Source: Daphnia carinata | Taxonomy: Eukaryota | Length of the DNA stretch: 64,000 nucleotides | NCBI RefSeq assembly: GCF_022539665.2 | Contig: NC_081333.1 | Span: 4,960,001 to 5,024,000, forward strand | Direction: 5' to 3' | Part shown: positions 21,961 through 47,241 of the stretch, piece after piece | Position numbering within the stretch: position 1 is the stretch's first letter | How the letters are laid out: the number at the start of each line of letters is the position of its first letter | The notes under the pieces: model-generated | The model's database searches: none | What the model was told of the DNA's origin: nothing | Seen by the model: only the letters and a program-made list of their open reading frames with translations | Program-made: the position numbers and the translations under genes

Positions 21961-24900
21961 ACACAATATCCCTACCAACCAACCCTTTAACACAAAATTT
22001 AGAAATAGCGATACCCAAACTAATCCGTATACCAGTAAGAATTTTTGGAAAAGAAATTAAGGCTTTAGTAGACACAGGAGCAGCAGCCAGTTTAGTTTCT
22101 GACAGCATATTTTTTAATCTAAAGGAGTATGAAGAACTTAAGATTGCCGGAGAAATAGGACCTGGAGAAATAGGACCCGGAGATTTAGGACCCCAAAATA
22201 GGACCTGGAGAAATAGGACCCGGAGAATTAGGACCCAATCATCAATCATATTTTGAAGGGTCCTATTTCTCCCTCATAAGGGTCCTATTTCTCCATAGTA
22301 ATGGTCCTATTTCTCCTTGGGAAATAGCCCTAAAGCCCGCTGTTATAAAGGAAGAACCGGACGGCTTATGTAGTTTTCCGCACTCCAAACCACGTTATCA
22401 ATTGCTCGTGTAATCAGTCCATCATAACTTTTTTGTTTGAATTCATATTTGTATTTTTTTTGCACGATTACACGCATTATCTATTGCTTTACACAGCTCA
22501 TGTATAAAAGTTATGTTTATTTTTACACAGTGTTTGATTTTTTGCCCTTGACCTTTCGTTAGTGGCGTTTCCAGTCCTAGTATCGCCCTCCCCCCTGGCT
22601 GATATCCTTATTCCATGCGAATTCCCGGAGACGAGGGGTATGCTTTCCCCTAAGTACTCCTTAATACACTGATAAATAATAAAAAAATTATATATATATT
22701 ATTTAAGACAAGCACATTTTTTAATAAAAAAAATATATGCCGCAAAACCATAAATAGAGACCTACGTGGCAAGAACGAAAATAATGAGTTCCGCTCGGAT
22801 CATGGAAGGCATGCCAGTGTATTGTTATACAAAACTATCATTGCACGGCTTGTAAATAATGGAACACGAGGCAGCTCATCCATGTCAATATCGGCAATTC
22901 ATACGATAAGTTTTTTTTTTTTTCGCTAGTTTATTCAGTTTATGCTTTCCTTTCATTTTTCGTTTTCTTAATGTTGATTTATCCCTTTTCTGTTGTTGTT
23001 CCTTTCTCTTTTCTTGTTCTTCGATGCGTTCAACCAACTTCTTTCTCGTTTGTGATGTTGATTTTATTCTCTTTCCTAATTGGTTTATCAAGCTCGCAAT
23101 CAATTCCACATTTTTTTTAACCTATTGCGCTTAGTATTCTTTTATCTGTTAAAATACAGAAAAGTAAAATTAGTTGAAGGTCTATTTTTTTTTGTCGAAA
23201 TCAAAGTTTACCTTGGCATCTGTTATTTTTCCTTTGTTTGTTTAGTTTCTTCTTCTCCCACTTATCTAACTTCCGTTTAAGTTGAGTTTTCATTTTATCA
23301 GAGTCCTGCTTTTCCCCTGAAATTGGATGGCATATGCTGGCTTGCCTTCCTTAAACAAAAAGATTATAGCACATACATACCCTACTAGCCTTTGTCCGTC
23401 CCAGGGACATCCCATCTACGTCCTGGCTGGCCGATCGGGACGTCCTATTCTGACGGCAGATGTACGTCATCAGGATGTCCTAATGTCCGGTTTTAGGGAC
23501 GTCCACTGGAGGACGTCCTACGGACGTAATTAATTGGAAGTCCTGGTAACGTCCTTATTTGGGAGTACTACGGACGTCCTTAGTTGGACGTCTGCAGGAT
23601 GGCAAATCCGTACGTTCAGTGAACGTACGTATTGGAACATCCGCGGAATGTCCGGATCGCGGCATCCAAAGGACGCAAGAAAATTTGTTTAAATTAAAAT
23701 AAAACCATAAATTTTTGGTAATTGATTTACATTTATTTTTACAAAATACAAACAATTAAACAAAAATTTAGCAGGTAACATCAAAAGCCTAAAAGGTCCC
23801 GCTTCTTCTTCACTGTCGGTGTAAATGAACTTGCCAGCTCTATCACTAGTTTTCGAACTGGCTTTTTTGGAACCAAGCTGTGTAATGGCTACATCGAAAT
23901 CGCTGTCGACCGAGGTAATTGATGTTTGCGAAGGTGTTCTCACCTGGACGGAAAGAATAAAAAATGGGAAATTGTGATCGGCGTAGAAACTCGAACAGGA
24001 AGATGATTTGAAATACCGGTCTCTTCCATCTACTGTTTGTTTCAGTATCAGAGGTAGCCGATTCGGCACTGATGGAAGATAGCGAGCGGAATCAACGACT
24101 TTCGCCCCCATTCATGTACGTGCGTTTGTATGGGTTGTCTTCCTTTAAATGATTGGGACGACCAACGATTCCATTTTTATCCTGCAACCAAATAAATTCA
24201 ACGCACACAGATTGAGAACTGTTTCCTTGTCATCGATAATTACGGAAAAGCCAAACCTTTTTCATTGCGGGGATGTTCGACTGTACGCCTGCTATGAGTT
24301 GAATGACTTGTTCAAAGCCTTCTTTTTGGATCGTTTCCCCACGTAAATATACAAGGTCATAGACATTGGAGCCATGATTGGCGTCAGTTCTGCTGGGGTG
24401 ATAGTTTTTTGTAGATCAGACAGAGACAAAATCGCTGTTGCTTGTGGAAGGTTTGTTCTCGCAATCGAAAATACGATCGTGATAATTTCTCTCTTCGGCT
24501 GACCATGTAACACAAATTTCGAACCTACAGCGAAGAACAGTTTTTACTGACAACTCTGCATTTAACGAGATAAAATAATAAAGTTAATGAGAAGTATGTT
24601 CATACCCTCTCTAGGTCTTGTAGCTGTACAAACAATTTCATACGTTCCATATCTTGCTGTTGTTGCTGACTTAATCTTTCCGTTTCAGTGGTTTTGGGTG
24701 GTAGCAATGGTCTGTCTCGGTTGGACTGGAAATTTTAAAAAAGAAAATTGATTGCTTGTAGTAGAGTCACATGAATTTGGGAGCACACACCTTTCGTTTA
24801 AGTACCCAAAAGTTGAAAATTTGATCAACGACAACGACATCGAGATCAAGATCTAGCGTCCGCGCCGTTTCATTAATGCTGGCATGCTTATAAAAGTCCG

Positions 24901-27900
24901 ATTCGATGAGTTGTAGCCTTTTCACACACAAGTAACTCTAAATAATTAAACGCAAAACGTAAAAATGTTTATGTATCCTATACTTTTGGGCACGGATTAA
25001 GTGCCTTTCTTCGACGGTCATTTCTTTTTTCAGCTTTCTAACGGATTGGGTGTTCTCCTCCCCCTCGCCTTCAACATGAGATCCCGTGATCCATATCCAA
25101 TATTGATATCATGGAAATCAATAATAAGGAATAGTGTTACGTGCTCCTGGACATTTTCTTGGGCACTGCTCAGCGATGGTACCGATTTCGGTTTGCTACA
25201 TAAGACGATAATAAATTAATGTAGTTACTAGTTGAAAATGCATCTAAGTGAAATGATAATTAAAGAATGGCTCTCAGATACTATCTAGCAGGAAGATTAG
25301 AACGAAAAGCCTTTAAACCATAAAAATAAAATTAATTTAGATTCAATTACACATATGTGTCCATTCATAGCTGGGTGTGTAGTTGGTTTTCTCCTCAACA
25401 ACAGAATTGGATGTCTTGCTTCTGTAAATTGAAATCCGTTAAAGCTCAGTACTTGCATCTTGAGATTAATGTCTTGACGTAACTAACAGCTGTAATGCTG
25501 TTATTTCATCTGAACGATAAGAAAAATGATTACATAAATTTCACGAACAAAAAATCTGTGAAAATCTAGATTACCAGAAGGATGATAGCTATAAGGCAGC
25601 TAACAAGTTGGTTCCCAAATGGTTCATGGTAAATCATGCTCTAGTTTCATGATTCTCCTTGAAAGTAACCACCTAAGAAACATTTCGGATTAGTAATGTG
25701 TGTCAAATTTCCAACTGCAACTAATAAAATTATGTCTACACTTTAAATACCTTTCCTTCCAAGTAAATTTTTTTCTTCTGTGGTGCTAATGCCAACATGA
25801 ATTTGAAATGTACCAAAACTGCCAAACCTAGGTAATAGAAAATTTTTAATTTTACTGAAACTAGCCACTTACCTGTCAAACAAACACCGCTTACAATAAG
25901 CAACTTCAACGATTCATAGAATTGTAGGATGTTGACACTTCGAGCTTGAAACAGTCGTCTGCTTGTAGTAACCGTTGCCATATATATCGTAAAAAACAAT
26001 ATTTTGCGCAAGGGCAAACAGTGTTTTATTATGAAATTAACGTTTCTTACATTATTTTTATATAATAATTTTCTTAGTTATCTGTGTATTAAGAGGTACT
26101 TATGTGCCCTCCCAAGAATCCTCATTGAGGCACGAAGAAAAAAAAAGTGAATAGCGACACTAGTAAAGGGCGGGTGATGGTAGGCCTGAAAACACCAGTG
26201 AAATGCGAAAATCCAAATACTGTATAAACAAAATTACTTTTCTATTAAATGAGCTCTAAAAAGCAATAGAAAAAGCATATAATCCTGCAAAAATATTATG
26301 AATGTAAATTTTTTTAAAAAAGTTATAATGCAGTGAAAAGGCGTCATATTGATAACGGTGTTTGAAGTGCAGAAACCAATATAAGCCGTTCGGTTTCTTT
26401 TTCAACATATCGGAAAATTAAGCCCATTACACATTTAATTTTTTTAAGATGGAGAAATAGGACCTCAAGGCTGGAGAAATAGGACCCTTCAAAAAATGTT
26501 TGAAGATTGGGTCCTATTTCTCCAGGTCCTATTTCTCCAGGTCCTATTTGTAGGTCCTAAATCTCCGGGTCCTATTTCTCCAGGTCCTATTTCTCCGGCT
26601 ACCAGAACTTAAACATGTTAAAGACTCCCCTTTGCCAATATTTAGAACGGTGTCAGGAGAAATACTAAAATCAAAAGGGAAATATGGATTTTCAATCACC
26701 ATTAACACCCATCACGTCATTAAGCATGATTTCTTTATTATGGAAAACTTGAACGAAACTTGCATATTAGGATTAGACTTCTTATCGAGCAACAATGTAA
26801 AAATTAATACTAAAAACAGGCAGATCAATTACGATCATTCCGGAAAAGAACATAGCTTTGGTAAATACACACTCCCAGTATATAGCATAACTTTTGGCAA
26901 GACAGGTATTAATATTCCACTCCTCCCAGACCGTTCGTCAGATAGTAACTACAACAACGATCTGACAGTAGCAGATTATCGCAGCCTAGAATCTTTCTCC
27001 CAATCAGAAATTAACAAGAAATCTAAGCGAATTGGACAAACCCAAGAGAGTGAAACGACTAACATCTCCGACGAGATACGCATTAAAATTGAAAATCTAT
27101 TGAAGAAACACGAAACTCTATTTGCAGAAAGAGAATCAGATTTGGGTCTAGCAACTGATGTAAAACATTCCATTAACATAGGATACAACGCCCCAATTAC
27201 TCAACGATTGCGTAGAACACCAGAAGCATTAAAACTAATTGTCAAAACAAAGATTGAAGTAATGGTAAATAACAATATTATTAGAGAAAGTCACAGCCCA
27301 TTTGCAGCAGCAATTGTAATGGTTCCCAAAAAAGATGGAGAAATGCGTATGTGTATTGATTATAGGGCACTTAACAAAATAACCGTAAAAGACAAATACC
27401 CATTACCAAGAATCGACGACACAATTGATGCATTGAGCGGATCAGTTTACTTCTCAACATTGGACTTACTAAGTGGCTACTGGCAGATCGAGATAGAAGA
27501 AAACGACAAACACAAAACCGCCTTCATTTGTGAACTTGGACAATACGAATTTAATAGAATGCCATTTGGACTAACAAATGCACCAAGCACTTTTCAACGA
27601 GCAATGAACAACATATTGAAATCAGTATTGTTCAGGTTCGCATTGGTTTACCTGGATGACATCATAGTGTTCAGTAATGATATTGCTGAACATGTGATAC
27701 ATCTAGAAGCAGTGTTTAAACTTCTTAAAGACGCAGGACTAAAATTAAAAAGAAAGAAATGCGAATTTTTCAAAGAAGAATTAGACTATTTAGGATATAT
27801 TGTTTCGAAAAAAGGAATAACACCGAGTACAAAAAAGTTAGAAGCAATCAGCAAATACCCAGCTCCCAAAAACGTGAAAGAATTAAGCTCATTTCTAGGT

Positions 27901-30237
27901 TTGGCTAGCTATTACAGAAAGTTCATCAGGGCTTTTGCTGATAAAGCCCACCCACTGACAGCGCTAACGAGAAAATCAGCCGAGTGGAAATGGGGAGAGG
28001 AACAAAGGGACGCCTTTGATTGTATCAAGAACTGTCTCATAACTAGACCTATCCTAGGGTATCCAGATTTCATGCGCGAATTTATCATCTACACAGATGC
28101 CTCAGGATACGGTATAGGAGCAGTCTTGGCTCAGATGCAAACTCTACCTCAATCAGCGGATTCAGCGGAGTCCGACGTACAGGAACCCCGTGAATCAGAC
28201 GGCGCGGAAGTCGTCATAGCGTATAGCTCTAAACATCTGAACGACCGCGAAGCCAAGTGGTCAACCACAGAGAAAGAGGCTTACGCCATCATCCACGCAA
28301 TTGACGTATTTAGAACGTATCTATACGGACGCAGATTCACCGTATTTACAGACCATAGACCTTTAGAATGGTTAATGAGCGAGACAGAACCCGCAGGAAG
28401 ATTAGCTAGATGGGCACTAAAAATACAAGAATTCGACATCGTCATTGGGTACCGGCCTGGGAAGTCGCACCAAAATGCAGACACCCTAAGCCGTATTCCC
28501 ATAGTGCCAATAGCACGAGTAGAAACAAGGGCAATGGAAAGAGGAACTGTCATAAGAGAGCTAGAAAATATTCGAAAAGAAGGTGAAAATCTAAAAGAAA
28601 AACTAAGGATTGAAAGATTAAAGAAACCAGAACAACTGGAGAAAGAAAACGAAAGTATTCAAAAAGAAAACGAAAGTTTTGAGAGGGAAAGTCAAAGGAA
28701 GAGCGTAGGTTTTGAAAGAGAAATTGGAAGTGAAAGTAAAAGGTCTGAGAAAGAAGACAGATGGATAGAATTACAGCAAGCAGATAAATATTGTCAAAAA
28801 CTAATGATGGATATACAAGAAGATAGCCAGAAAAATAGAAATAAAAAATTCTCAAGCAACTTTATAATCAATGAAAAGGGTCTATTAACAGATAGACAAG
28901 GAAAATTAGTAGTCCCTGTACCGTTAATCGACGGAATTTTACGAGCAAATCATGATCACATGATGGCAGGGCATTTAGGAATCGAAAAAACAATAGCCAG
29001 ACTTAGAGAACAATACTTCTTCCCATACATGAGACAAAACGTAACAGAGCACATCAAAAATTGCCTTAAATGCGCAAAACGCAAGGCTGTGGGAGGAAGT
29101 AAAGCACCATTGCAACCTATGCCCCCAGCCGAAAGGGTGTGGGAAAGACTTGCGATGGATATTGTGGGTCCCGTTCAAGAAAGCGCAAAGGGACATAAGT
29201 ATATTTTAGTCCTATCAGATTATGCCAGTCGTTTCGTCTTCACGGTTCCAATGAGAGATCAAACTGCCCAAACAATTGCTACAATACTGGTTAATGATAT
29301 TTATACAAAATATGGATCCCCCGAAGTAGTACTAACAGATCTAGGAACTAATTTCCTGTCGAGCTTAATCCAAGATATTTGCAAATTATTTAAAATCAAA
29401 CAAATCAGAACAACAGCATACCATCCCCAGACAGACGGATTAGTAGAACGATTTAACAGAACCCTATGTGACATGTTGGCTTGCTACGTAACGGATGAAC
29501 CAGAAAATTGGGACAAATATCTACCATTTGTCACATTTGCTTACAACACAGCGAAGCAATCAACACTGCAACAAAACCCATTCTTTCTATTCTTCGGGAG
29601 ACAACCAGTGCTCCCAAACGACATCAAAATAGACAGGCGATACGAAACATACGAGGATACCAGTGTAATGTACTCACACCAATGGAAGAAGGCTCAGCAA
29701 CTAGCGAAGGAACACCTATTTCGGGCACAGACAAAACAAAAAAGATACTACGACAAAGGAACACAAGCGATCAAATATAACATTGGTGACTTTGTGCTAC
29801 TGAAAGCTCCACCAACTGCCGGAAAATTCATCAACAGGTGGAATGGACCATTCAAAATCATCAGAAATTTCTCAAATCTCACTTATGAGATTCAACACGC
29901 GAGCAATGAAAAACTAAAATCAGTGGTACACGTCAACCGCCTAAAGCTCTACGTCCCGGCAAACCAAGAAACAGAAGAATTATCTAGTGTTCCACAACAA
30001 CCAGGAAGTGAAACAGTGCGACGAGGACCAGGCAGACCAAGAAACAACTTCATCAACAACAAAAGAATACCTGTCCGTAGAGCGTGTTGGCATCGGCATC
30101 ATCATGCAGCAGAAACGGAAAATTGTAAAATCATCGCACCAAATCTCCCCGGTCCTATACCAATTAATCCTGCACACACTAGAATGACGAATCCACGATA
30201 CAACTTACGGCAACGCAACGAAGTCTCGAGATTCTAA
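21885..30237 (+). CDS. pol: Pol (protease-RT-RNase H-integrase), split in the protease by a MULE (22142-26612); otherwise open
   Basis: LVDTGA (~22065); YLDD; TDAS…EKEAYA…TDH; HHCC and DDE integrase; W-x-GPF. Removing the insert and one TSD copy restores the frame …EELKHVKDSPLPIFR…. Pol is in the -1 frame relative to gag. Confidence 0.96.
22142..26603. mobile_element. Non-autonomous Mutator-like element with long diverged TIRs and GAAATAGGAC arrays
   Basis: 9-bp TSD AGAACTTAA (22133-22141 and 26604-26612). G…C termini. 15-bp GGAGAAATAGGACC(T/C) repeats at both ends, inverted. Degenerate inverted similarity extends to ~22700 and ~26060. Confidence 0.95.
23380..25380. mobile_element. Probable second DNA transposon nested in the MULE (CCC start, GGACGTCC palindrome array, decayed minus-strand gene)
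   Basis: CCCTACTAGC start, then many GGACGTCC-like palindromes at 23400-23670, then exon-like remnants. Right boundary is a guess (…AGCTGGG at ~25376). No TSD confirmed. Confidence 0.45.
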
Positions 30238-30261: not shown

Positions 30262-33200
30262 ATGGAACTGATACTATCACTCATCCAATTACTCACCATC
30301 ATTCCATCCACATATCCCATCTATTCAACCGTATGCGACTGCCAGAACGTAAAGACCAGAGGAATTTTAGATATAGAGGGACCCTATTACTGCAATAACA
30401 AAGAATCAGATACAGCTCACTTACCCAGAATACCCACGTTGTACACTTTAAAAACAACACAAAAACCAGCAGCCTCTTGGAAAGGCTGGACCTGCAAGCA
30501 ATGGATAAAAACGAAGAAAATAACTGGGTCATTCTGGATCGGATCTTTCGACACCATATATTCACAAGAAACTAAACTAATTTCCCCACTGGAATGCTGG
30601 AGAATGGTGAACGACAAGAAATGTGGCGATAATAACATGCAGACCGGACCAGCGGGTCTGAGTTTCACAGCCACCCCGACAGGCGAAGGGCAATGGTATG
30701 CCATAAAAACATATCACACCCTCAACTGTGTTGCAGAACAAATCACCTTACGGCAGGAAAAACAAGACGACCCAATCGAGAGCCCATTTGGACCATTAAA
30801 TACTACCCAGCAAGAAGGACACTTCATCCAAAATCAAAACACAATAGTATGGGGAGATAGGACAACAAATAATTCATATTCTCAAACCTTGATCAAAGGA
30901 AGCGGTTATCTGGAACTTCCGAGAATACCGGAACGCGAAAACACCAGCCGTCTTTACGACACCAATCGACAGATCGAGATTTCATTCTTCAACAAACCAG
31001 ATCGGGACATAACACCACAAGGTTACAAAGTTGTGGGCGTACCGCTCACATACCTAATCTTTCCAACCGAAACAACGAGAAAATTGTACGAGATGTTCAA
31101 AACAACTATACATACATGTATACAAAATACTCACATAGATACATCGGTATGCAAGGACTACAGGGAACTCCAGTTAACCAAGCGGAAACGATCCATTCAA
31201 CAGGAAGTTACATTCTTGCTCAACGCCCCCTCGGAAGACTCAGGAAAACGTCTGTACAGCATTTCGTACGCCTGGGGACCAATAAGAATGGGATATCAAC
31301 AGGCAATCAGGATCAACGAGAAGGACCGGAGTGTAAATTACAACGCCACTATATACATAATATACAAACCCGACGAAAACACTCAGTTAACCGCCCACTT
31401 TCGTCTCAAAGACGATGATCCACTTCCTCAAGGATCAGAATTCGAATACATCGTTGACCAAACAATAAGAATCCAGAACAGTAATATCTGTATCACGGAA
31501 GGAGAAGCAGGCCGACTAATTGTTGCTAAATGCTCAGAATTTTCAACACGGTGGATTCTAGATCAACAAAACCATCAATTAATTTCACAAGAATCGTATC
31601 TCTGTATTACACTAGGAACATACCAAGCTATCATATTGACAGAATGCAGAGATGATAAGAACAGCGTAACACAAAAATAGATCTTTGAAACTGTCAACAC
31701 CAATCCAGACATCATAGAAAATTTCCCAGACACAACTTTAGCAGAAATGCAGGAAATTCAACAAGAACAACGGAAGGCAATCACAACCACGATTAATTCG
31801 CCGCTATTTGGAGGAATTTTAAAAACTAATCACGGTAGCGGAAATATAATCTGGGATATGATTGCCTGGGGCCTATTGAAAAACGGAAAAACACCAAACG
31901 AAAAATGTCTAACACACCATGGAGTAAACAAGCAAATGACATTAGAAGAATGCGACAAAGAGTGGCCGCAATGTCAAGAAGAACTAAGAAAACTAATTAA
32001 CAGCAACGATCCATTAGTACAATCACAAACAATGGTAGCCAACTGTAGCAAAGCAACAGAACGAGGACAAGCTTTCGAATATACATCTGATTTCACCATC
32101 AGACCGTTCAACACAAACACCTGTATCAAAGCCAATACGACAATGCTAGTACTTCAAGAGTGCGCTAGCACCAGCTCAATCTGGGGCACATTTGAGCACA
32201 CAGGACAGCTCATGGCAACAGATAGAACTGGGCTACATTCACCCTCATCAGACAGGAAGTGTCTCACACAGAGAGTAGGACGGGTGACCCTGGGGCATTG
32301 TCACAGCTCCAGCCAAAAACAGCACTTTAACTTTGAATATCGCAACCCACACCAAATACGGACTCTCTCAGCGGCAGCCATCATAGCACTGCACACTAAA
32401 CAGCCATTGGACGGGAAAACACTCCCAACCATACCACCACTAATGAAAAGAGAGGATAACAACCAATCAGAGAACAGCAAAACTTTGGCCACACCCCCTG
32501 CCACGCCCACAACAGAAAAACACACAACAACGACAAGCGTTACAACGACTACAAAGCCCACAATAAAAACCACATTGGGAACAACAGCAAAAACAACGGT
32601 AAAAAGCACTACGACAATTAAACCAGTTACAAGCACATCAGCTAGCAAACCCACCACAACACAGAAAGTGACAACTAAACCCAGTATGACATCAACGTCA
32701 ACAAAACCCACCACAACTACAAAACCAATAATCACATCGACAAGCACTAAACCCACCACTACTACTAGACCTACGGCAACTGCTAAGATAACTTCAACTT
32801 CAACAACCACTACAACTACAAAACTTACGACAACAACAACAATGGCCACTACAACAAGTTCCACAACAACAGAGAAAACAACAACGCCTACTACGACAAG
32901 TTCCACAACAACAGCGACAACAACGACGCACCAGCCAAGCTCAATAACGCCGAGCACAAAAACAGTAATCGAAAGTTCGACTACCCAACAATCATCAACA
33001 CATACTGCCGGGAGGTCGGAGAAAAAGGCCCAGACGAAAAAGGCCCAGACGAAAAAGGCCCGCGAAAAAGGCCCAGACGAAAAAGGCCCATACGAAAAAG
33101 GCCCACTTTTTTCCAAATTCAAAAGTGGGCCTTTTTCTCCATTGGACTGGGCCTTTTTCTCCGCTCAATTTCCATTTTCTTACAAACTTTATTTTTGTTT

Positions 33201-36200
33201 CGAAAATTGTATTTCCCACCTCCTATTCCGTGGAATTTGGAATGTACAAAAGTTGCTGAAACCGTGATTTTCTTTAAGGTTTGCAGAGATCAAACAATGT
33301 TAGCGTTTGTACGCTAGTTAATCTTTGATTATTTATTCGGTTGCAATCTAATTTCGGATTATATTAGTATTTATATATTGCTAATATCCCGTTTAATAAA
33401 GTTCATTTTTCACAATTTTTGTTTATTGAACTACCATCGCTTTTTTAAATATAATACAAAAAATAAATGTTTTTCGCACTTAGCCTTGTTCTGTCCACCC
33501 TCTTTCATTATTCCCCCAACCCCCAGTCCATCTCCCATATAGCTTCTTTTTGTCGATACTTATGCCATAGGTAAAGACCACTGATTCGTTGGGAATACGG
33601 AAACTGAATGAGTTCCGCGGGGCTTTTGTGGTTGCTGGGAACAAAAATATATGTTACCACGAAGACTAGTTTATTATCATTAACATTTAATAAATAATGT
33701 TTATAGGAATAATATTACAAACTTAAATTATCGTCTGAGGCAAGGAACAAAACAAAGATTATGTAATTCAATATTGATTCTAATACCATTTATTCCTTAT
33801 ATATTTTCAATTCTTTTAACAATTACAAAGAGCCCAATAAATATATTAAAATCATAACCTACTGGTATAAATGATTCTGTTCATTCTTCGTGTCCTGTTT
33901 TCACCTTTTGCACATTTTCAAGCAGCTATTGATTACCTAATTACACATCACATAATACATTGAGATATAAGGAAGCTTTACACTTTACGTTAACAAAGCT
34001 ACTAATAATGACAAATCAATTTTCTACCATGACGGACTTTTTTTTAAAATGAGAGTCTGTTATTAGTGAAGACACTAAACCTTTTTAAATGAATCTAAGA
34101 TATTTTTTCTTCAAATTTTCCACGATCATGGAAGGCATGCCAGTGTATTTTTCTATAAAACTATCACGACATGGACGCACATGAAAGAACAAGAGTTTAG
34201 CTCATCCATGAGTCAGTATCAGTCTTTCATACGGTAAATTTGCCTTTTTTCTTTAGTTTATTCACTTTATGTTCTTTCTTTTCAGTTTTATTTTTCTCAA
34301 TGTTGGCTTTTCTCTTTTTCTGATGTTATTCCTTTCTCTTTTCCTTTTCTTCGATTCGTTCAGCGCAGTTTATGTTACTTTCTGATTTGATCTCGTTCAT
34401 TAATTGATTTGGCAAGCAATTCCACATAGTCTTTTTACCTATTGCAATACAGAAAGGTTAAAAGTTTTGAAGATCTTACAAATATTTTTGTCAAATTGAA
34501 AGTTTACCTGAAAACCTTCAGCTATTTGCAGAGCACCATTTCATGCCTGTTTCTCTTCAATGCTTCTTGCATTCTCAGCTTCAGCTTGGCCTACCAAGCT
34601 ATTCATTTTTGGTTTAAGTTTTATTTTCTTTCATTTTAATCGTTGCCACTTCTGGATATAAAGTGGTCTTTTTCAGAATGGGTGAGGAATTAGATAGTTC
34701 TCCAAAATCAAATTTGCTGGAAACTAGGCAGCCTTCACTGTTAAAAATTGGTGTTGCCAGTGTACTTGCTAGTCTTGGTTGAGGAATTTCTGTTTTAACA
34801 AACTCTGAAAGACCAGAGGTTGATGACACAGATACTGCCTTGGTGGCTCGAGCATGTTTGGCAATTCAGGACCTCTTCTTCTTACTTTTTCTTTTTAATT
34901 TCTTCTTCATTCCCTCTAACTTCCGTTTAAATTGGATTTTCGTTGTCTTATCAGACAATTCAAGCTTTTCCTCTAAAAATCAATGGAATAAACTGGCCGG
35001 TCTTCCTTAAATGTAAATGTTAAAACATACCTGTTAAGTGTGAGGCGTTCATTCAGTTTATGTTCTTTCTTCTCAGTTTTCTTTTTCTTAATGTTGGCTT
35101 TTCTCGTTTTCTGTTGTTATTCCTTTCTCTTTTCCTATTCTTCGATGCGTTCAGCCAACTTCTTTTTACTATCTGATTTGATTTCATCTTGTTTCATAAT
35201 AGATTTAGCAAGCCATTCCACATTGTTTTTTACCTATTGCAATACAGAAAGGTTAAAATTATTTAAGATCTTACAAATATGTATGTCAAATTGAAAGGTT
35301 ACCTGAAAACCTTCAGCTCTTTGCAAAGCACCTTTTCATGCCTGTTTCTCTTCAATACTTCTCACATTCCAACTTCAGCTTGGCCATCCAAGATTTTCAC
35401 TTTGGCTTTGAGTTTTTTTTTATCGTTGCTACTTTTCAATCTAAAGTGTTCTTGTTCAGAATGGGTGAGGGATTAGATAGTTCTCCTAAATCAAATTTGC
35501 TGAATACTAGGCAGCCTTCGCTGTTGAAAATTGGTGTTAGCGGTGTACTTGTTGGTCTTGGTTCAGGAATACCTGTTTTGACAAACTCTGTGGGATCAAA
35601 GGTTGATGACACTGATGCTGCCTCGGTGGCTTGTGCAAGTTGGGCAATTCAGGACCACTTCTTGTTATTTTTCTTTTTTAATTTCTTCTTCTTCAATTTT
35701 TCTAACTCCTTTTAAGTTTGGTTTTCATTGTTCTATCAGACAAATCCAGCCTTTTCCCTGAAAATAGATGGAATAAGCTGGCCCGTCTTCCTTAAACGTA
35801 AAGATTAACACATACCTGTTAAGTGTGAGGTGTTAGCTGCTAGACATTCTTTCTGTTCAACACCAACCTTATTGCTATTGAGATCGTCAACTGTAGATAC
35901 ACTTTCAATTGGAATGTTGGTCAATAAGCTAGAAATCATGATTTTTTGGGTCCACATTTCCTATAAATTTTGTTTAGACGACACTTTCAAGTTCTTGTTT
36001 TCTCTTTTTCCATTTACAAAAACTGCCTCTCATATTATAACCTTTAAACTTTATTATTATATACCTTGATTTCTCAACATTATCACTGATCACTCCATAG
36101 ATCAAACTATACGAAACAAGTCTATTGTTATTTTCTTCAGGGAACGGCATTTTCAAGTCAAATCTAGCGTCAGGACGCCACTAACAATGGCGGACGGTTT

Positions 36201-39200
36201 TTAACATAAAATTTTAAAATTTTTTAATTCTTTTATTACAAATTCAACAAAATTTAGTTCCTTTGTATAACAATAATAATGAATTATAATAATAGAACAA
36301 TAACAAAGGAACTAAATTTTGTTGAATTTAATAAAGCTTTAGCTAAAAGTTTTAATAACAGCTTTCCATCATCCGCTCTGCAAAGAGCTGAAGGTTTTCA
36401 GGTAAACTTTCAATTTGACAATGTAAGATTTTAAATAATTTTAACCTTTCTGTATTGCAATAGGTAAAAAACCATGTGGAATTGCTTGCTAAATCTATTA
36501 AGAAACAAGATGAAATCAAATCAAATTGTAAAAGAAGTTGGCTGAACGCATCGAAGAATAGGAAAAGAGAAAGGAATAACAAGAGAAAACGAGAAAAGCA
36601 AACATTAAGAAAAAGAAAACTGAAAAGAAAGAACATAAACCGAATGAACACCTCACACTTAACTGGTATGTGTTAACATTTACATTTAAGGAAGACCGGC
36701 CAGTTTATTCCATTGATTTTCAGGGAAAAAGCTGGAATTGTCTGATAAGACAACGAAAATCAAACTTAAACGGAAGTTAGAGGGAATGAACAAGAATTTA
36801 AAAAGGAAAAGTAAGAAGAAGAGGTCCTGAATTGCCAAACATGCTTGAGCCACCAAGGCAGCTTCTGTGTCATCAACCTCTGGTCTTTCAGAGTTTGTTA
36901 AAACAGAAATTCCTAAACCAAGACTAGCAAGTACACTGCCAACACCAATTTTTAACAGTGAAGGCTGCCTAGTTTCCAGCAAATGTGATTTTGGAGAACT
37001 ATCTAATTCCTCACCCATACTGAAAAAGACCACTTCAGATCCAGAAGTGGCAACGATTAAAATGAAAGAAAATAAAACTTAAACCAAAAATGAAAATCTT
37101 GGTAGGCCAAGCTGAAGTTCAAATGCAAGAAGTATTGAAGAGAAACAGGCATGAAATGGTGCTCTGCAAATAGCTGAAGGTTTTCAGGTAAACTTTCAAT
37201 TTCTTCAAAACTTTTACTCTCAAGATCTTCAAAACTTTTAACCTTTCTGTATTGCAATAGGTAAAAGACTATGTGGAATTGCTTGCCAAATCAATTAATG
37301 AACGAGATCAAATCAGAAAGTAACATAAATTGCGCTGAACGAAACGAAGAAAAGGAAAAGAGAAAACAATAACAACAGAAAAAAAGACAAACCAACATTA
37401 AGAAAAATTAAACTGAAAAGAAAGAACATTAAGTGAATAAACCAAAGAAAAACAGTCAAATTTATCGTATGAAATAATGATACTGTCTCATGGACGAGCT
37501 AAACTCGTGTTCTTTCATGTGCAAGCCATGTCGTGATAGTTTTTTATAACAATACACTAGCATGCTTTCAATGACCGTGGAAAATTTAAAGAAACAAAAT
37601 CTAAGATTCATTTTAAAAGGTTTAGTGTCTTCACCAATAACAGACTCCCATAAAAAAAGTTCTTCATGGTATAAAATAATTACAATGGATTTGTAATTGT
37701 TAGTAGCATTGTTAATGTCAAGTGCAAAGCTTCCTTATATTTCACTGTAGTATGTGTGTGTAATAAGGTAACCAATAGATGCTAGAAAATGTGCATAAGG
37801 GAAAACAAGACACGAAGAACGTAAAAAATCATTTATAATTGCTGGAAAAGCGCGCGTTCTTACCAGAGACGTAGATGGTTCTCTCGTACTAAAGGTGACG
37901 TTATTCTTTAACAAAAGGTTGCTCTGTAACAAAAGCAATGCATTAACTATTTAAGTTTTACTCATAGACGTTCCTAGGCAAATCAAATATTCCTGTTTTG
38001 CTCGAAATATTTATTGCTTGGGTGAAAAGCGCTCCAATCCCAGTCAGCAGTCACCGCCTAGCTGGCATAGTTATAGCAGTAGGTTATGATTTTAATACAT
38101 TAATTTGGCTCTTTGTAATTGTGTGAAGAATTGAAAATGTGATAAGGAAATAAATGGTATGAGAATGAATATTGAATTATAATATTCTTTTTTTTTACTT
38201 TCAAAACTACTTTGTAAATTTCACACGATAAGTGCGAAAAACATGTATTTCTTATATTATATTTAAAGCAGCTATAGTAGTTCAATAAACAAAACTTGTG
38301 AAAAATGAACTTTATTTAACGGGATATTAGCAATAGATATATACTAACATAATTCAAAATCAGATTGCTACCGAATAAAAAAATATAAATTACCTAGCGT
38401 ACAAACGCTAACATTGTTTCATCGGCAAACCTTATTGAAAGTCACGGTTTCAGCAACCTTTGTACATTCCAACTTCCACGGAATAGGAGGTGGGAAATAT
38501 TTTTTGGAAACATGTTAAAGATTGTAGGAATTTGGAAATTTAACGGAGAAAAAGGCCCAGTCAATGGAGAAAAAGGCCCACTTTTCAATTTGGAAAAAAG
38601 TGGGCCTTTTTCGTGTGGGCCTTTTTCGTATGGGCCTTTTTCGCGGGCCTTTTTCGTCTGGGCCTTTTTCGTCTGGGCCTTTTTCTCCGCCAATCTACTG
38701 CCGGAGTAACCCCTTTAGCACTAACGGGAACAACGTCTACAACAGAAGGAACTCAAATTCAGGCCATCGAAGAAAGCAGTATTCGAAACTTGCCGTTAGC
38801 TGATTCTTTGATAATTTCAATGGATCAAAAAGCTGAAGATACATCAAACAATGAAAATTTAGAAGCCGATTTACCCAAAAACATTGAAGAATTCAACGAC
38901 AAAATTAAATACGAAATAAGTAAAATGCACGACCAATATAAGATAAGCATCGAAACTGAACACGAAAACAAGTTGGCAAAAGAAATTCGGGACGTTTATT
39001 GTCAACTATCAGCAATCAAAAGAACACAAGCAGTTATATTAGCCCAAACCAACGGAATTTTAGCAGCAGCAGCAGTAGGTTTACCAATCTGCACAAGACT
39101 ACAAGGCTTCGGTCAAGCAATGACACTTCAACAATGCGAGGCAAAAAGAATTTTTATATCAGCAAACGAAACCAAATGTGGATTTCAGCCGTTTTTTACT

Positions 39201-40049
39201 TACGAAGGAAAAAACTGTACGATTGGAACAGATGGATGGTCAATTCATCCATATTCTGATTGTTTCTGGAAAACACCTTTGGTAAATTTAAATGGAAATC
39301 CACACACATGGGAACACAATTCTACGACAGGAGATTGGATACGCCAGACACCTAGCATTCACATGCCTAATTTAGACCTCATTTCAGAATTTGAAGAACT
39401 CCATCTTAACGATTTCGACTTCGCGCTGAAAAGCCATCCAGCACACGAGACGATGGAAATGGAACAATTAAATATTCTAAATGACCTAGTTGGCAGAATG
39501 CAAGAAGGCAACTCCAATTCTGTTGGAGACATTGTAATGTCAGAACAACAAGATAATCAAATAGGAAACATGTTCTCATGGTTCGACAAACTAAAAATAA
39601 TTGGTCTATCAGCGATAGGATTTGTACTATTCCTCGTATGTTTACGAATCTTCATTATTTGCAACCCCATCTCGAAGATAAAAGAACATATCCGCAGAAA
39701 ACGGAACTTTACAACCAGATACGATGATGGCGTAGAGGAAGAACACGAACTCGCATCAATGATACCGGCACGAGAAACAAATTACCATTCGGAAATAGCA
39801 ATCGAACAACCGTTCCTAAGAACAACCGCCCCTGCACAACTAACAACAGAAAGACAAGGTCAAATGCGCCCTCCCCGACCAAGTGCACCAAATTCATTAA
39901 TTTACCCCTCTATCGAAACAACTGACACAATCACACGATGTACAGGAAAACACACCATGTGCACTTACGTCGTCGGATATGGCATGGTTTGGGAAGACCT
40001 ATGCCGTTGCATGTCCGAAACAGACAATAGTAATTCAGCCAGAAAGTAA
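30262..40049 (+). CDS. env: Env-like type I membrane glycoprotein (reconstructed 30262-33011 + 38705-40049, ~1364 aa); interrupted by one TAG (31678) and a MULE
   Basis: N-terminal hydrophobic signal; Cys-rich ectodomain; KRKR furin site (31180-31191); QxW/C-rich ricin-B-like repeats; Thr-rich tract; TM IIGLSAIGFVLFLVCLRIFIIC; ~130-aa tail. The three ORF pieces join in one frame. Confidence 0.9.
33012..38695. mobile_element. Foldback-type Mutator-like element (5.7 kb, ~2.3-kb inverted arms) inserted in env
   Basis: 9-bp TSD TACTGCCGG (33003-33011 and 38696-38704). GAAAAAGGCCC arrays at both ends. Arms ~33012-35330 and ~36375-38695 are diverged reverse complements. Confidence 0.95.
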
Positions 40050-40704
40050 AAGTCCCAAGGTCATTGAAATTAAAAGTAGCCACTAAACATAACCCCTGAC
40101 AAATTTAATTAATTACAAAATAAATTAGCTCCCAGAAAATAACACACTTATCAGCATTTTTTTTCCGACCACTTAGGTGATTTTTAAAATATATCCCATA
40201 CTCGTAACTTTATAGTAAAACAAAGAGTAGAGACAAAACCCGAATAACAATTTTGTATTCCAAACTAACATGAACTAAAAAATTCAAAATAGAAAACCTT
40301 TGGGATAGACAAAACAAAAATTACAAACCAAACCAAGTCAATAACAAAATCATCGGAGAAAAAGCAGTGTAGTGTAACAAAGAACGACAGAAACTAACGC
40401 ACGAAGAAAAAGAAAGACGCAAGAACCCCTATAAGAAAAGACAATGACTTAAAAAGGAAAATAGAAAGTTCAAAATGTAACGGTATATTCATCAATTCGC
40501 CCCACGGCGAAATAGAAGACGGAACACATTAAAATAGAAGAAACTACCTGTTTTGAAATTAAGAAGAGGGGAACAAGAATTTATGAAAAACTCTGCAAAA
40601 GAAGACTTTTCAAAAAACTAACCTCTTCCCAGTGTTTCAACGACATAATTCAGACAAAGTTCTACAAAGAAAAGTGTCATCACAAGTCAACCTTTACTCT
40701 AAAA

Positions 40705-41946
40705 ATGGAAAACAACAACATCACTCAGGATAACGCAATGGACGTAACCATCATCCCACAAGAGGAAAAAGAATACGAATTAATATACATTAGTGATACT
40801 GAAAGTGAGAATAGCCAGCAGGAGTACAAAGAAAAGGAAAGTGCTAAAAATGCAGATGTGAACAAGCAGATAGTGAAAAATGTGGAATGGAACGGAATCA
40901 AAACCGAGAAAAACGATTTTTCCGAACTAGAGAGAAAAAGGAAAGACATCAGTGAATCAAGTGACGACGACACTGAGGAGGTAAATGCCTATAGTGAAAT
41001 GGAACCCGATCTGGATAGTACCTACAGTACCGAATTTATATTGGAAAATAACAGTGACACCGGTTTCCAATATGACCCACCCCACGGTACCGAATTGGAA
41101 AATGTTAGTGACACCGACCTCCAATGTGAACCGCCCAAAAAACGGAGCAGACCGAATAACCAACAAAGGGAAACAGAAACATGCAAGAACTGTCGGATGA
41201 AGACAATAGCACCCCTTTCAACAGAACAAGCAGAGAAGATTCAACTGCACCGACAGGCTACTATTGACTTGGAAGACGGAAAACTTTGTCTATCAATGAT
41301 GGAAGCTACACTACCAACTATAAGAAGATGCATCCAAAAAAGATTAGAATCGCTAGGATGTTGGCCACGACAAAAAATGGCCATATTCCTTAATAAAAGA
41401 TACGAGGATGGACGTACCCTGCTCCACACCAGTATACAAAAAGTAAGGTACGACATAACTGATGCTCTACTTGCCTATGGGGCAAACCCCGAGATAATGT
41501 ATCGAGGCAGCACAATTGGACACATGGCAGCGGAAAATAACGACTTATTCCTGGTAAGGATACTAAAACACCACAACTGCGAGTTCACAAATCGCAATAA
41601 AGACGGAGAAACCCCGCTAATGACAGCAATATCACACGAACATGAGGAATGCGAACGCCTAATTTCGACACCAACAAACATCAAAATAGCAACCAGCAAG
41701 GGCAGAACCATCTTGCATTACCTCGCCAGATATGGACTCGAAGACTTGGCTACGCAAATCTGTACAAAAAGAATAATTGACGTCAACCAGCAAGACGAAA
41801 CGGGCACAACTGCCTTACACGAAGCAGTGAAATATAAACGACTGGACATGATCGAATTACTGCTTCTACATGGAGCAGATAAAAAGATAAAAGACAACCG
41901 TGGACATACGGCTGTAGCAAATAATAACAGCACAAACATACAATAA
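40705..41946 (+). CDS. Ankyrin-repeat accessory protein (413 aa) encoded inside the retroelement
   Basis: Uninterrupted ATG-initiated ORF between env and the PPT, with the element's A-rich composition. About 5-6 ANK repeats (GRTLLH, GSTIGH, GETPLM, GRTILH, GTTALH, GHTA). Acidic N-terminus and PPKKRSR. Confidence 0.92.
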   Translation: MENNNITQDNAMDVTIIPQEEKEYELIYISDTESENSQQEYKEKESAKNADVNKQIVKNVEWNGIKTEKNDFSELERKRKDISESSDDDTEEVNAYSEMEPDLDSTYSTEFILENNSDTGFQYDPPHGTELENVSDTDLQCEPPKKRSRPNNQQRETETCKNCRMKTIAPLSTEQAEKIQLHRQATIDLEDGKLCLSMMEATLPTIRRCIQKRLESLGCWPRQKMAIFLNKRYEDGRTLLHTSIQKVRYDITDALLAYGANPEIMYRGSTIGHMAAENNDLFLVRILKHHNCEFTNRNKDGETPLMTAISHEHEECERLISTPTNIKIATSKGRTILHYLARYGLEDLATQICTKRIIDVNQQDETGTTALHEAVKYKRLDMIELLLLHGADKKIKDNRGHTAVANNNSTNIQ

Positions 41947-42159: not shown

Positions 42160-42360
42160 TGTAACGAGCCCACAGGCTATCCGAAGACGGCCACACCCTC
42201 AACATCCCTCAAGCGTTTCACAAGTGAAAGTGAACATGTCCCCTCCCATTTTACCTTCATTTTGTATGTGTGTTAGTAGTATAAATACTGCATTTTTGTA
42301 ACATGTAATTGGGACTTGTTACGACAATCCACTGCAATACACAAGGTTTGAAACTTTACA
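42160..42360 (+). repeat. 3' LTR (201 bp)
   Basis: Identical by eye to 18887-19087. Confidence 0.97.
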
Positions 42361-44745
42361 ACTAGCCAAGTTAGCTACCAACTAGCGAGATGGACAGCAA
42401 GAAAAATATAAATCAATAAGAAAAGAAACAAAAACAAAAACAAAAAAACGCAAGATAAATAGCATGGTGTTGTCAACGAACGTTTAATATTCAACGTATA
42501 ACTCGTCTTTCCAACCGACCAAGGTTATCACCCTAACGCCACGGCAGCAATCTGGCATATATCTGCATTACATGTTTTGTTCATCCATATCGTCTCCAAT
42601 GGCGGCTTGGTGCAGAACTCGTTACGTGACGAAGTAGAAGGTTGGGCTAGGAACGGGCAAAAAAGAAGGTGACAATTTAAGAGGAGGGAGACAGAAAGCA
42701 AACGAACAAAAAGGGAAAATGGAAAACAGAAAGAAACTAGTTTTAGTCCGTGTCAAAGAAGAGAAATAATAGGAAGAAAAGAATAGCTGTTAAACAAGCT
42801 CACGTACGACAGGGCACAAGGTCCAATTCATCACGTCAACCGAAACATGTCGCATTGGTCCACCTTATCGGTCAGTTGGAGGTCCTCTCATTTCAAGCGA
42901 TCAAACCAAACGCGATCAAATGTATCTGTCGAATGCCTTGTATTTATAGCTATTCTATATATGCAAATGCAGACAGCCAGTAAAGGATAACCATCTGGAG
43001 GTATGGCCAGCCAACAAATCGACTTCGCTTTGAACTGTGTATGTGACTGCTGCCTGCGGACATATTCAATACAATGGCCTCTGACGAATCAGATTTTTAA
43101 TCAATCATTAATCACCAAAGCTAGGTTTAGTCACCGTATACATGACTATAACTTTACAGCAACAGGGCTTTCGTTTGTTTTCAATGCTGCCAGATTAGCG
43201 CGATTAATTATATAGCGTAGAAATGATACGGGCCTTTAATAGCTACAGGTATTTGTACGAAATATCGACTGCTCTTCGTATGGAAAATTCAACGGCTTAC
43301 TTGATGTGAATGAGCGTATGTTTATGTTGCTCGCAAGGAAAAATTATTTTTGGAAACGTGCTTTATAGGGAGGATTTCGTTAGCAATCAAGGTTTGAAAT
43401 TCTGGAATGATTGATTGATTTCTTGAGATTTTTCTGGTATGTACCCTGAGATTTCGACCCAATTTTGACAATACTTAAAGGACGATATGAGACTTCCGAA
43501 GCTGTAATGGATTCGTTCAGCTAGTGGGGTAGTATTTGACCTGACCGGAACACAACATATCGGTACTATTGATTAATGTGCCATTGTCGGGTTTGTTGCC
43601 CTCGTTTAAGAAAAATCTTTATAGCAAGTTTATCTCCCACAACGCCATACTCCCTTCATTATTGATTCTCATATTCTTTTATTTTGTTTAGGTATAGGTA
43701 GGTATATTCGTTATTTACCTCGAAATAGGGGCATCTTAAAAATTTGTTTTTTAAACAATTGAATTGGAACATTAAGTAAAATGAATCATGTGTTTAAAGA
43801 AGAATGAATGTTTCATTTAAATTATATTTTTTGAAATTTTAAAATAATTTCGCAAACCTCCAGTTGCAGAATTGTAAATAAGTAGGCAAAACTATTTTAA
43901 ACCGAAAAACTTCTTTTATTTTTTAATTACGCATCATCTGGGCTGGCTTTTCTTTTAAAAGTTGTGGATTTATGCTGTTAATATCAAATTATTTTTCCAG
44001 GAATTCAATTTTATTGCTGGTCGCGAAAAAAGGGATTAACCAACATACACCCGTGCCTACTAGCCCCACTTTCCACTTGTTCCTTTATCACAGTATTCCT
44101 CCTTTCAAATTTCGAACAAAACCACCTAAACGCCATCTCTGGAGCTAAACATGCGTAGCGCAGTTGCTTTGAAACATGGACTGCTTCTGATGTACTATAC
44201 TATTTATGGTACTAGTAACTTTGAGCCTGTCCAGAGTCGGGGAATACGTGGCACTAACATATTTTTAATGCCCTTATTTGCCATTTTTTTGTTTGTCGAC
44301 CCTTTAGTCTTCGAAACAACTTTAACCCTTTAGAAATCGAAACACTCCCTATCTGTAACCGTAGACCCGCCCATTGCCTCTATCCGCCAAAATGCCGCTG
44401 TACTTGCCCGCTAGTATACCGCAGTAAGCCATCAGTAAATTCCGAGAGATCCACGGATGGGGACTTGACCAACGGAGTTTCGCAACAGCGTTTTATACCG
44501 TTGCGCGAATTAACCCTGGTCGTGACTGAGTATCTCCGTATCTTTTTAAAAGTGGGTGCCGGGTGAATCATCTCTGTGAAGAGATGATCAGTCTTCTTTT
44601 CCCCCGCGACAGTAATAATAACCTTAATGTTAATCACTATTCTATAATAAAATGAAATAACAACTTTTTTAATTTTTTATATTTTGTTCAGGCCAAATTA
44701 CACAAACAATATTTTTATTGAATTGTGGTCGAAAGTAGAAAAAGG

Positions 44746-47241
44746 TTAAGTTGTAAGAGGTGTAGACGAGATTGACTCTGATTTTTCCTCTGTCGGTTGT
44801 ATAGGAATCTTCATCCGGAAGGTTTCTGCAATTAACTTTAGAACTCTCAGTTTACCGTTTGTATCTTGCAGTGAATAGAAAGATGAGATTTTGTTCTTCA
44901 TTCCGTTGAACTGCATGTCAAGTGACGATAACACCTGTGATTCTTCTTCGTCGTATAAGTCTCCGAGCGCTTTTGCCATGTTTGGTATATTCTCTATAAC
45001 ATCCTCCTTAAAGGTTTCGTCATTGGCTTCATCAGTCATTTTCGAGAATACATCGCTTCCTTCTGATTACCTGGCAAGGCTCTCTATGGATGGATCTTCA
45101 CGGATAACACTGAGGAATATGTAAATCATCTCTGATTTTTGTTCAACATCCAATTTAAGCACTCTAATATCATGAAGGATATCCGAGAAAACATGCAAAA
45201 TACCTGTTTTCTCAGCAGGGCCTGCTTCAGGCGAATTTTCTTTATCAGCAATACTGGAGAAAACGTGAGTCATTTTTTATTTTAAATCATCGTCCAATTC
45301 CAGTCGGCTGAGATTATGAAGTATTTTCGCGAACACGTCCGTCATGGCTGTTTTCATACGTAGTCCCGTATCTGGTGTCTTTTCGTCACGGGCAACACTG
45401 GAGAGCACGCTAATCATTTCTGATTTGTGTTCGACGTCCAAATCAAGTGCTTTCATGCCATGAAGGATTTTTGAGAAAATATTCAGCATGCCTATTTTCT
45501 CGACAGAGCCCGTTTCAGGTGATTTTTCTTCATGAGTAACACTGGAAAGCACTTTAATCATTTTTGATTTCTGATCATGTTCCAATTCCAGTCCGCTTAG
45601 GGCACGAAGTATTTTCGAGAACACTTTCGTCATGTCTGTTTTCCTAAGTAGTCCCGTATCTGGTGTGTTTTCTTCACGGGCAACACTGGAGAGCACGTTA
45701 ATCATTACTGATTTGTGTTCAACATCTAATTCAAGTGCTTTAATGCCATGAAGGGGTTTTGAGAAAACATTCAGCATGACTAGTTTCTCGGCAGGGCCCG
45801 CCTCAGGTGATTTTTCTTCGTGAGTAACACTGGAGAGAACTTTAATCATGTTTGATCTCTGGTCATGGTCCAATTTCAGTCCATTGAGGGCTTGAAGTAT
45901 TTTCGAGAACACCTTCGTTATGTCTGTTTTCAGAGGTAATCCCGCATCGGATGCGTCATCTTCACGGGTTACCCTGGAGAGTACGTTAATCATTTCTGAT
46001 TTGTGTCCAACGTCCAATTCAAGTTCTTTAATGCCATGAAGGATACTTGAGAAAACATTCAGCATGTCTTTTTTCTCGACAGGGTCCGTCTCAGGTGATT
46101 TTTCTTCATGAGTAATGCTGAAGAGAACTTTAATCATTTTTAATTTCCGATCATGGTCCAATTCCAGTCCGTTGAAGTCATGAAGTATTTTGGAGAACAC
46201 TTTCATCATGTCTGTTTTCATACGGAGACCCACATCTGGTGTGTGTTCTTGACGGGTAACACTGGAGAGCACGTTAATCATTTCTGATTTGTGCTCAACG
46301 TCCAATTCGAGTGCTTTAATGTCATGAAGGACATTCGAGAAAGCATTCAGCATGTCTCTTTTCTCGGCAGGTCCCGCTTCAGGTAATTTTTCTTCGTCAA
46401 TAACACTAGAGAGAAATTTAACCATTTTTGATCTCTGTTCATGCTCCATTTCCAGTCCGTTGAGGTCATGAAGTATTTTCGACAATACCTTCGTCATGCC
46501 TGTTTTCATGCGTAGTCCCGCATCTAGTTTCTTACCTTCACGGATAACACTGGAGAGTACATTAATCATTTCTGATTTGTGTTCAATGTCCAATTCAAGT
46601 GCTTTAGTGTCATGAAGGATATTCGAGAAAACATTAAGCATGTCTTTTTTCTCGGCAGAGTCCGCTTCCGGTGATTTTTCTTCATCAGTAACACTAAAGA
46701 GAAATTTAATCATTTTTGATCTATGATCATGGTGCAATTCCAGTCCGTTGAGGTCATGAAGTATCTTCAACAATACCTTCGTCATGCCTGTTCTCATACG
46801 CAGCCCCGCATCTGGTGTGTTATCTTCACGGGTAACACTGGAGAGTACGTTAATCATTTCTGATTTGTGTTCAACGTCCAATTCAAGTGCTTGAATGCCA
46901 TGAAAGATATTCGAGAAGACATTCATCATGTCTGTTTTTTTGGCAGGGCCCGCTTCAGGTGATTTTTCTTCATCGGTAAAACTAGAGAGAACTTTTGTCA
47001 TTTTTGTTTTCTGACGGTCAAATTTCACCCTGTGGAGTTCAGGAAGAATTTTCGAGAGTGCGTTCATCATGTCTGGTTTCATACGTAGTACCGCATCTGG
47101 TGTGTTTTCTTCGCGTGCAACACTGGAGAGTACAGGGGGAATTGCTTCTCCCATGGTCCCCAATATTACGAAGAACCCCACTAAACAGCTGACTGCAAGA
47201 ACTCTCGACACTGCCAAGTAGCATGTTGAACACTTAACCAT
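44746..47241 (-). pseudogene. Intronless, probably secreted tandem-repeat protein (alternating 48-aa units, 96-aa/288-bp higher-order repeat) with two in-frame stops
   Basis: Signal-like MVKCSTCYLAVSRVLAVSCLVGFFVILGTMGEA, then about 7 A+B dimers (VLSSV.REENTPD…/VLSSV..EEKSPEA…). ORFs 45277-47391, 45067-45273 and 44746-45039 are all in one frame. Confidence 0.8.

Follow-up and report, generated by a model that had tools for sequence, protein, structure and literature searches.

Beta-trefoil insert and ankyrin-repeat gene in a broken Daphnia carinata Ty3/gypsy element with a predicted class III Env

Envelope genes (env) of the herpes simplex virus (HSV)/glycoprotein B (gB) type in Ty3/gypsy elements across animals have been described by Chary and Hayashi (eLife 2026, PMC13524379), who, in the part of the paper available to us, favour an ancient association of env with the Ty3/gypsy pol. 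Their family Branchiopoda_Diplostraca_Dcar_errantivirus_6 from Daphnia carinata is classed as ENV_HSV in the C2 group with 7 copies, and neither a long terminal repeat (LTR) nor a primer-binding site is given for it in that part. This study concerns a 64,000-nucleotide stretch of D. carinata DNA (contig NC_081333.1, positions 4,960,001 to 5,024,000 of the forward strand; hereafter the window), in which an env region belongs to a Daphnia Ty3/gypsy LTR retrotransposon at 18887-42360. The element carries a Ty3/gypsy pol, gag and a gB-type env between LTRs, as do HSV/gB-type errantiviruses. As far as the available part of PMC13524379 describes Dcar_errantivirus_6, the element shares with it the gag-pol-env order, the class III call and a near-identical domain I-II sequence (229 of 230 residues the same, compared by eye), and differs in that the copy in the window is broken in pol and env but shows both LTRs. 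The class III reading of env is correct but already published for this family, so that the novelty implied in the original prediction falls away.

New here are a trefoil insert in env and a fourth gene, which encodes ankyrin repeats; neither of these nor the mucin-like stalk of Env had been part of the original prediction. The text of PMC13524379, apart from its figures, mentions no lectin, ricin, trefoil, mucin or ankyrin, and in its seven supplements, as far as available, lectin, trefoil and ankyrin do not occur and ricin appears only within species names. The only rows of supplement 4 marked with an "extra domain" or "extra domains" are those of two further Branchiopoda models; as far as the source could be read, extra domains were seen by its authors but apparently left unidentified. 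In the literature covered, which took in few subscription papers, we found neither a retroelement env nor a class III fusogen described with a trefoil or lectin insert, and no ankyrin gene after env. We lean, with appreciable doubt, towards reading the locus as the env gene, now broken, of a recently inserted Ty3/gypsy element; its product, a predicted class III fusogen, would carry the two trefoils on a mucin-like stalk as a likely cell-attachment module.

Three protein groups serve for comparison. In herpesvirus gB, the basic cleavage motif lies after domain II, as KRKR does in the Env studied here, and several herpes gB proteins are furin-cleaved in the domain II-III loop. Rhabdovirus G is uncleaved and its central helices are short. 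In R-type lectins, the lobe aspartate is the sugar-binding residue, and the mannose-receptor domain binds through a site other than this canonical one.

Env in three pieces and its predicted class III fold

In the window, env and all of its parts lie on the + strand in three pieces, split where trefoil 1 ends by an in-frame stop codon (31678-31680) and further on by a 5,684-bp insertion. Aligned with the intact relative P0006, the pieces correspond in turn to its residues 21-482, 485-923 and 915-1359, with 44-49% identity, and because this alignment is collinear, the three pieces represent one gene. Together they amount to about 1,360 codons, compared with 1,328-1,392 amino acids in full-length relatives. 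All five peptides quoted in the original prediction are present on the + strand, namely GWTC...EC at 30484-30597, GQWYA at 30688-30702, KRKR at 31180-31191 and two central-helix stretches at 38973-39008 and 39042-39137.

Env starts with a predicted signal peptide (30262-30324), which is the most hydrophobic 19-residue span of the first piece and has the same start in relatives. It is followed by the predicted class III N-terminal half (30325-31170). Searches of the PDB with phmmer and with profiles (env pieces, profiles A3 and A4) gave no fusogen match; therefore, the class III reading was tested by structure. The N-terminal 282 residues were modelled from an alignment with 61 further rows, with a mean pLDDT of 89.3 and a pTM of 0.66. 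In VIA-align, a re-comparison of Foldseek's top 1000 PDB chains and not an independent search, the best 50 rows listed consisted of 43 herpes gB and 7 rhabdovirus G chains at Z 8.3-10.0. The highest value was that of Mokola G (Z 10.0, root-mean-square deviation (rmsd) 8.4, 195 aligned residues, model 31-256 to 34-249), next to human cytomegalovirus gB (Z 9.9, rmsd 4.7, 209 aligned residues, model 33-249 to 119-434); the spans of these two alignments indicate a fusion domain nested in a PH-like domain. For the fusion domain, 117 residues were superposed with Chandipura G (rmsd 3.0; model 48-181, chain 49-176). Judged from the model, rhabdovirus G and herpes gB tie as the closest fold, and the fusion domain appears rhabdovirus-sized. 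Among the 50 BFVD matches listed for the N-terminal half, 34 were named RNA-virus glycoproteins, 4 gB, 3 uncharacterized and 9 unnamed, with a best E of 6.5e-11. Two entomopoxvirus proteins, Q9YVZ3 and W6JPK9, both uncharacterized, ranked among the best class III-like BFVD matches.

The model also bears on the two fusion loops that had been proposed, since both fall at conserved turns of the predicted fusion domain. Predicted loop 1 (30532-30543) is assigned by DSSP to a turn between strands 50-69 and 74-84, and predicted loop 2 (30688-30702) is a coil before strand 127-144. F70 in loop 1 and W124 in loop 2 are each kept in at least 90% of the 62 aligned rows. The aromatic turns, at model residues 70-73 and 124-126, sit on long hairpins, which would fit an internal beta-hairpin fusion domain. 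At the end of the N-terminal half lies the furin-type motif KRKR (31180-31191), which many relatives have, though not all.

The predicted class III C-terminal core (38892-39566) comprises a central helix, crown strands and an arm, and has 37 invariant columns in 18 rows. A predicted transmembrane helix (39600-39662, Kyte-Doolittle mean 2.7) and a cytoplasmic tail (39663-40049) follow; the alignment and a motif tally showed a conserved His/Cys-rich motif at the end of the tail. Thus, by hydropathy, Env is predicted to have both the signal peptide and the C-terminal membrane anchor of a class III protein. The tail motif itself (39940-40020) is a possible zinc site and is almost confined to the insert-bearing clade.

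For a whole-protein model, the naturally intact relative P0020 was used (1,123 amino acids, 42% identical to the last env piece of the window). This model (pLDDT 63.8, pTM 0.34) has a 51-residue central helix (706-756), which agrees with the gB-like central helix proposed from the sequence, together with a beta-rich crown (strands 771-855) and a transmembrane helix. The 40 PDB rows listed were 28 gB and 12 R-type lectins, and BFVD returned xinmo-, rhabdo- and chuvirus G and gB; since TM-scores were 0.09-0.15, these are domain-level matches whose domains are not mutually placed. The original prediction of a class III fold rather than an F protein is borne out by both models, which match gB and rhabdovirus G, and the PDB rows for the N-terminal half listed only class III fusogens. 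On this modelling, the class III likeness of env is not due to chance.

With herpesvirus gB, Env thus appears to share the fold of the N-terminal half (Z up to 9.9) and a long central helix, whereas its fusion domain is smaller, its identity is 6-13%, and it carries inserted trefoils and a stalk. With rhabdovirus G (Mokola, rabies, vesicular stomatitis virus, Chandipura) it shares a nearly colinear N-terminal half, a compact fusion domain and two aromatic loops, whereas Env is about 1,360 amino acids long instead of about 500 and has the 51-residue helix and the large insert.

That env might instead be an F-type (class I) errantivirus protein is a reading to which we give almost no credence. 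The furin motif would suit it, as would a Pfam Baculo_F match on the last env piece (E 0.001), but this match scored 18.2 bits against a cut-off of 24.1 and covered only the membrane-proximal and transmembrane end, and it was rejected as membrane-anchor similarity. No hydrophobic peptide, as judged by hydropathy, follows the furin site 3' of 31191, the maxima of the first piece being those of the signal peptide. The reading is also contradicted by the class III model of the window's own N-terminal half, and no F protein occurred among the rows listed for the P0020 and N-half models in the PDB and BFVD, where a lower-ranked match is possible.

A recent capture of env from a rhabdo-, chu- or herpes-like virus, close to the origin in an RNA or large DNA virus that the original prediction envisaged, is very improbable. 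The fusion domain has the size of that of rhabdovirus G, and among 50 Pfam-scanned relatives two gave weak PF00974 and two weak PF24664 matches, all below cut-off; Pfam on 11 N-half rows likewise gave a single weak PF00974 match (E 0.02). Nevertheless, identity of env to viral proteins is 6-15%, G and gB tie, a profile of the C-terminal core finds 533 diverse relatives, and IMG/VR yielded no env relative (none among 43 candidate stretches). The available part of PMC13524379 also argues for an ancient link with pol.

The trefoil insert among its relatives

Between the KRKR motif and the central helix, env carries an insert of two trefoils and a stalk. The N-terminal half aligns to HSV gB as far as residues 456-490, which places the insert in the domain II-III loop. 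The first ricin-B-type beta-trefoil (31267-31677), whose first lobe is degenerate, matches Pfam PF00652 at E 9.2e-6, below the curated cut-off, and its profile A6 matches R-type lectins of the PDB. The second (31864-32343) matches PF00652 at E 2.2e-10, and its profile A5 reaches a best PDB E of 1.8e-10. Between them, these profiles hit 54 (A5) and 27 (A6) PDB sequences at E <=0.1, among which are ricin B, lectin domains of GalNAc-transferases and the cysteine-rich domain of the mannose receptor. Together with PF00652 and a Foldseek match of the P0020 model to ebulin B (E 2e-11), these results identify the R-type lectin beta-trefoil fold with lobe disulfides. The mucin-like stalk (32488-33009) is 174 amino acids long and consists of 48% Thr and 13% Ser. 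In three relatives (P0013, P0014 and P0016), a helical coiled-coil-like segment replaces most of the Thr-rich stalk region.

The Env trefoils share profile and fold with R-type lectins (ricin B, GalNAc-transferase, mannose receptor), and their tandem arrangement is that of ricin B; they differ in lacking the canonical aspartate, in being part of a membrane fusogen and in having no toxin domain. Comparison of profiles A5 and A6 gave a probability of 99.8, but two rows are common to both, and the sequences lend weak support to a tandem duplication as the origin of the pair. In the profile A5 alignments, ricin B and GalNAc-transferase PGANT9 have an aspartate two residues after the first Cys of a lobe; this aspartate occurs at none of 61 distinct positions from 13 loci (65 were counted, 4 of them twice), and Glu occurs at 4. 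Therefore, binding would need another site or a non-glycan ligand.

Stalk length among relatives ranges from almost nil to several hundred residues. This variation bears on the alternative, which is unlikely yet deserves serious attention, that the trefoils are not glycan binders and would instead recognize a protein receptor or hold the trimer clamped in its prefusion state, as a regulator in place of herpesvirus gH/gL. Such a role is suggested by the missing aspartate and by the position of the insert, which adjoins the central helix that refolds in fusion, whereas the variable stalk is easier to reconcile with a tethered binder than with a fixed clamp, and a trefoil copy number of one or two also argues against a clamp.

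The relatives were collected with the C-core profile, which found 533 representatives at E <=0.001; 150 of these were listed, and 178 proteins were collected, 57 of them with both halves. The named env relatives all come from Daphnia magna and D. sinensis. The linker between the halves falls into three classes: 17-55 residues without Cys in 17 of the 57 proteins, 120-250 residues with 4-6 Cys in 16, and 381-783 residues with 6-15 Cys in 24; no linker of 56-119 residues occurs among them. Relatives thus carry zero, one or two trefoils at one env site, and the insert behaves as a module. PF00652 was found in all 24 longer env relatives of one relatives set, and Pfam on 50 listed proteins confirmed trefoils in many one- and two-domain forms; in several others, including P0059, P0079, P0088 and P0117, the Cys pattern is present but no PF00652 match reaches E 0.01.

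Separate trees of the N-terminal half and the C-terminal core were built from 39 near-complete proteins and the matching piece of the window. In both, one branch splits 30 insert-bearing rows and the insert-free P0050 from 9 insert-free rows, with support of 99/96 in the N-half tree (careful method) and an SH-aLRT of 93 in the C-core tree (quick method). One- and two-copy forms are interleaved in both trees, each requiring 5-6 changes. The His/Cys motif of the tail occurs in 25 of 40 insert-bearing proteins and in 1 of 17 insert-free proteins, namely P0050; as the only insert-free protein with this motif, P0050 appears to have lost its insert. The simplest history that fits these sequences would be a single gain of the insert, followed by duplications and losses. 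Since the insert is lost in P0050 and missing in 17 of 57 proteins, it is not required by the fold.

This dispensability, together with a Thr+Ser content of 61% in the stalk, is what may be expected if the trefoils and the mucin stalk bind nothing and merely screen the fusion core from host defences, as a passive shield or spacer. We regard this explanation as improbable. A folded domain with conserved disulfides persists across rows that share 25-35% identity, the trefoil cysteines are kept among distant rows at 15-35% identity, and several relatives carry a trefoil with little or no stalk.

Several points weigh against the trefoils as a likely attachment module on a class III fusogen, and against its history as outlined above. 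Both trees are midpoint-rooted only, the C-core tree was made by the quick method, and some one- and two-trefoil labels were assigned solely by the length of the linker and its number of Cys. None of the positions tallied has the canonical aspartate, and the loss of the insert in P0050 and its absence from 17 of 57 proteins show that Env proteins occur without it. In the P0020 model (pTM 0.34, TM-scores as above), the trefoils are not placed relative to the core. Finally, R/K-x-R/K-R is absent at the KRKR site in P0006, P0007 and P0011; the cleavage at KRKR proposed in the original prediction is plausible for the Env of the window, but the motif is not shared by these relatives.

Element anatomy, ankyrin gene and nested insertions

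The element is bounded on the + strand by a 5' LTR (18887-19087, TGT...ACA) and a 3' LTR (42160-42360) with a polypurine tract just before it, and a 4-bp target-site duplication (18883-18886 and 42361-42364) flanks it. Both 201-bp LTRs are identical (201 of 201 bases), and therefore the insertion of the element is recent. Directly after the 5' LTR, 19088-19106 looks like a primer-binding site, a candidate which we take to resemble the 3' end of tRNA-Gln. The gag open frame (19036-21960, + strand, stop to stop) encodes a Ty3 capsid domain and a zinc knuckle (Pfam PF19259, E 1.8e-10; PF00098, E 3.5e-5). The pol gene (21885-30237, + strand) has the order protease, reverse transcriptase, RNase H and integrase, and is interrupted within the protease; Pfam finds a protease fragment before the insertion and RVT_1, RT_RNaseH and rve after it. 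The gene order is gag, pol, env and then the ankyrin-repeat open frame, all inside the LTRs.

This fourth gene is an intact open frame between env and the 3' LTR (40516-41946, + strand, first ATG at 40705; Pfam Ank_2, E 2.2e-25). Among 29 metagenome loci, 10 extend at least 1.9 kb after the env core, and 8 of these 10 have a Pfam-confirmed ankyrin frame there; the two without it, L027 and L029, are degraded copies. The ankyrin proteins of relatives are 17-32% identical to that of the window. The ankyrin profile was built from the same eight open frames that it retrieves, and Pfam serves as the independent test. Viral ankyrin proteins act against host signalling, and by analogy the gene likely serves as an accessory that targets host signalling. 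Ankyrin repeats also occur in planarians, in the giant Ty3/gypsy elements called Burro; according to the available part of PMC6431247, those repeats lie within the giant ORF1 polyprotein, whereas here they have a gene of their own, located after env and ahead of the 3' LTR. The available part of the bdelloid extra-ORF survey (PMC5408684) mentions neither ankyrin nor lectin.

Two nested foldback DNA elements interrupt the copy, one in the protease region of pol (22142-26603) and one in env (33012-38695, 5,684 bp). Both are flanked by a 9-bp target-site duplication and have inverted arms of considerable length; the former contains no frame longer than 140 amino acids and the latter no long frame. 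The env foldback shares 74-80% identity with parts of the pol foldback, and the two are likely related to each other and non-autonomous Mutator-like, the superfamily label being inferred. With these insertions and the in-frame stop, neither a full-length Env nor a full Pol can be made by this copy, and the inclusion rule of Chary and Hayashi (intact, uninterrupted open reading frames) excludes it; intact members of the family exist, but this locus is a broken one. Both related foldbacks, with their 9-bp duplications, sit in one element whose LTRs remain identical, and the paired insertions suggest current DNA-transposon activity or a preferred target.

Outside the element, short terminal repeats like those of the foldbacks were found near 2786-2912, and a further pair of inverted arms about 3.6 kb apart (53841-57690) is likely another DNA transposon. 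On the - strand, 45277-47397 holds a 706-amino-acid open frame of at least thirteen 144-bp repeats, which alternate between 62% and 77% identity and belong to no convincing Pfam family.

Proposed mode of action and meaning

If the trefoils are an attachment module, the intact Env would be a secreted, membrane-anchored trimer, with likely cleavage after domain II by a furin-like protease of the host. After this cut, the trefoils would form the free end of the membrane-anchored piece, and the O-glycosylated stalk would hold them outward. There the trefoils would bind a surface ligand, probably a glycan via a non-canonical site; class III hairpin refolding and fusion would then be set off by a trigger, perhaps low pH. 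By analogy with Drosophila gypsy, the likely purpose would be transfer from soma to germline.

HSV entry also requires gD, gH and gL, according to the available part of PMC13524379, whereas the Daphnia element has no gD, gH or gL gene. We tentatively propose, short of holding it probable, that a class III fusogen lineage built its own receptor-binding head, by one trefoil gain in the cleavable domain II-III loop followed by duplication, variable stalks and occasional loss. Attachment and fusion would then be combined in one protein that does without gD or gH/gL, accompanied by a dedicated ankyrin accessory gene.

The trefoil insert matters because the entry mechanism of gB-type errantiviruses is called unknown in the available part of PMC13524379. 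Because the folded candidate binding domain has one defined position and exists naturally in forms with zero, one or two copies, the question of the receptor can be put to the test on small isolated domains. In this predicted class III fusogen family, the domain II-III loop tolerates up to about 780 extra residues, and the conserved fourth gene suggests that these elements are closer to complex viruses than to simple gag-pol-env elements.

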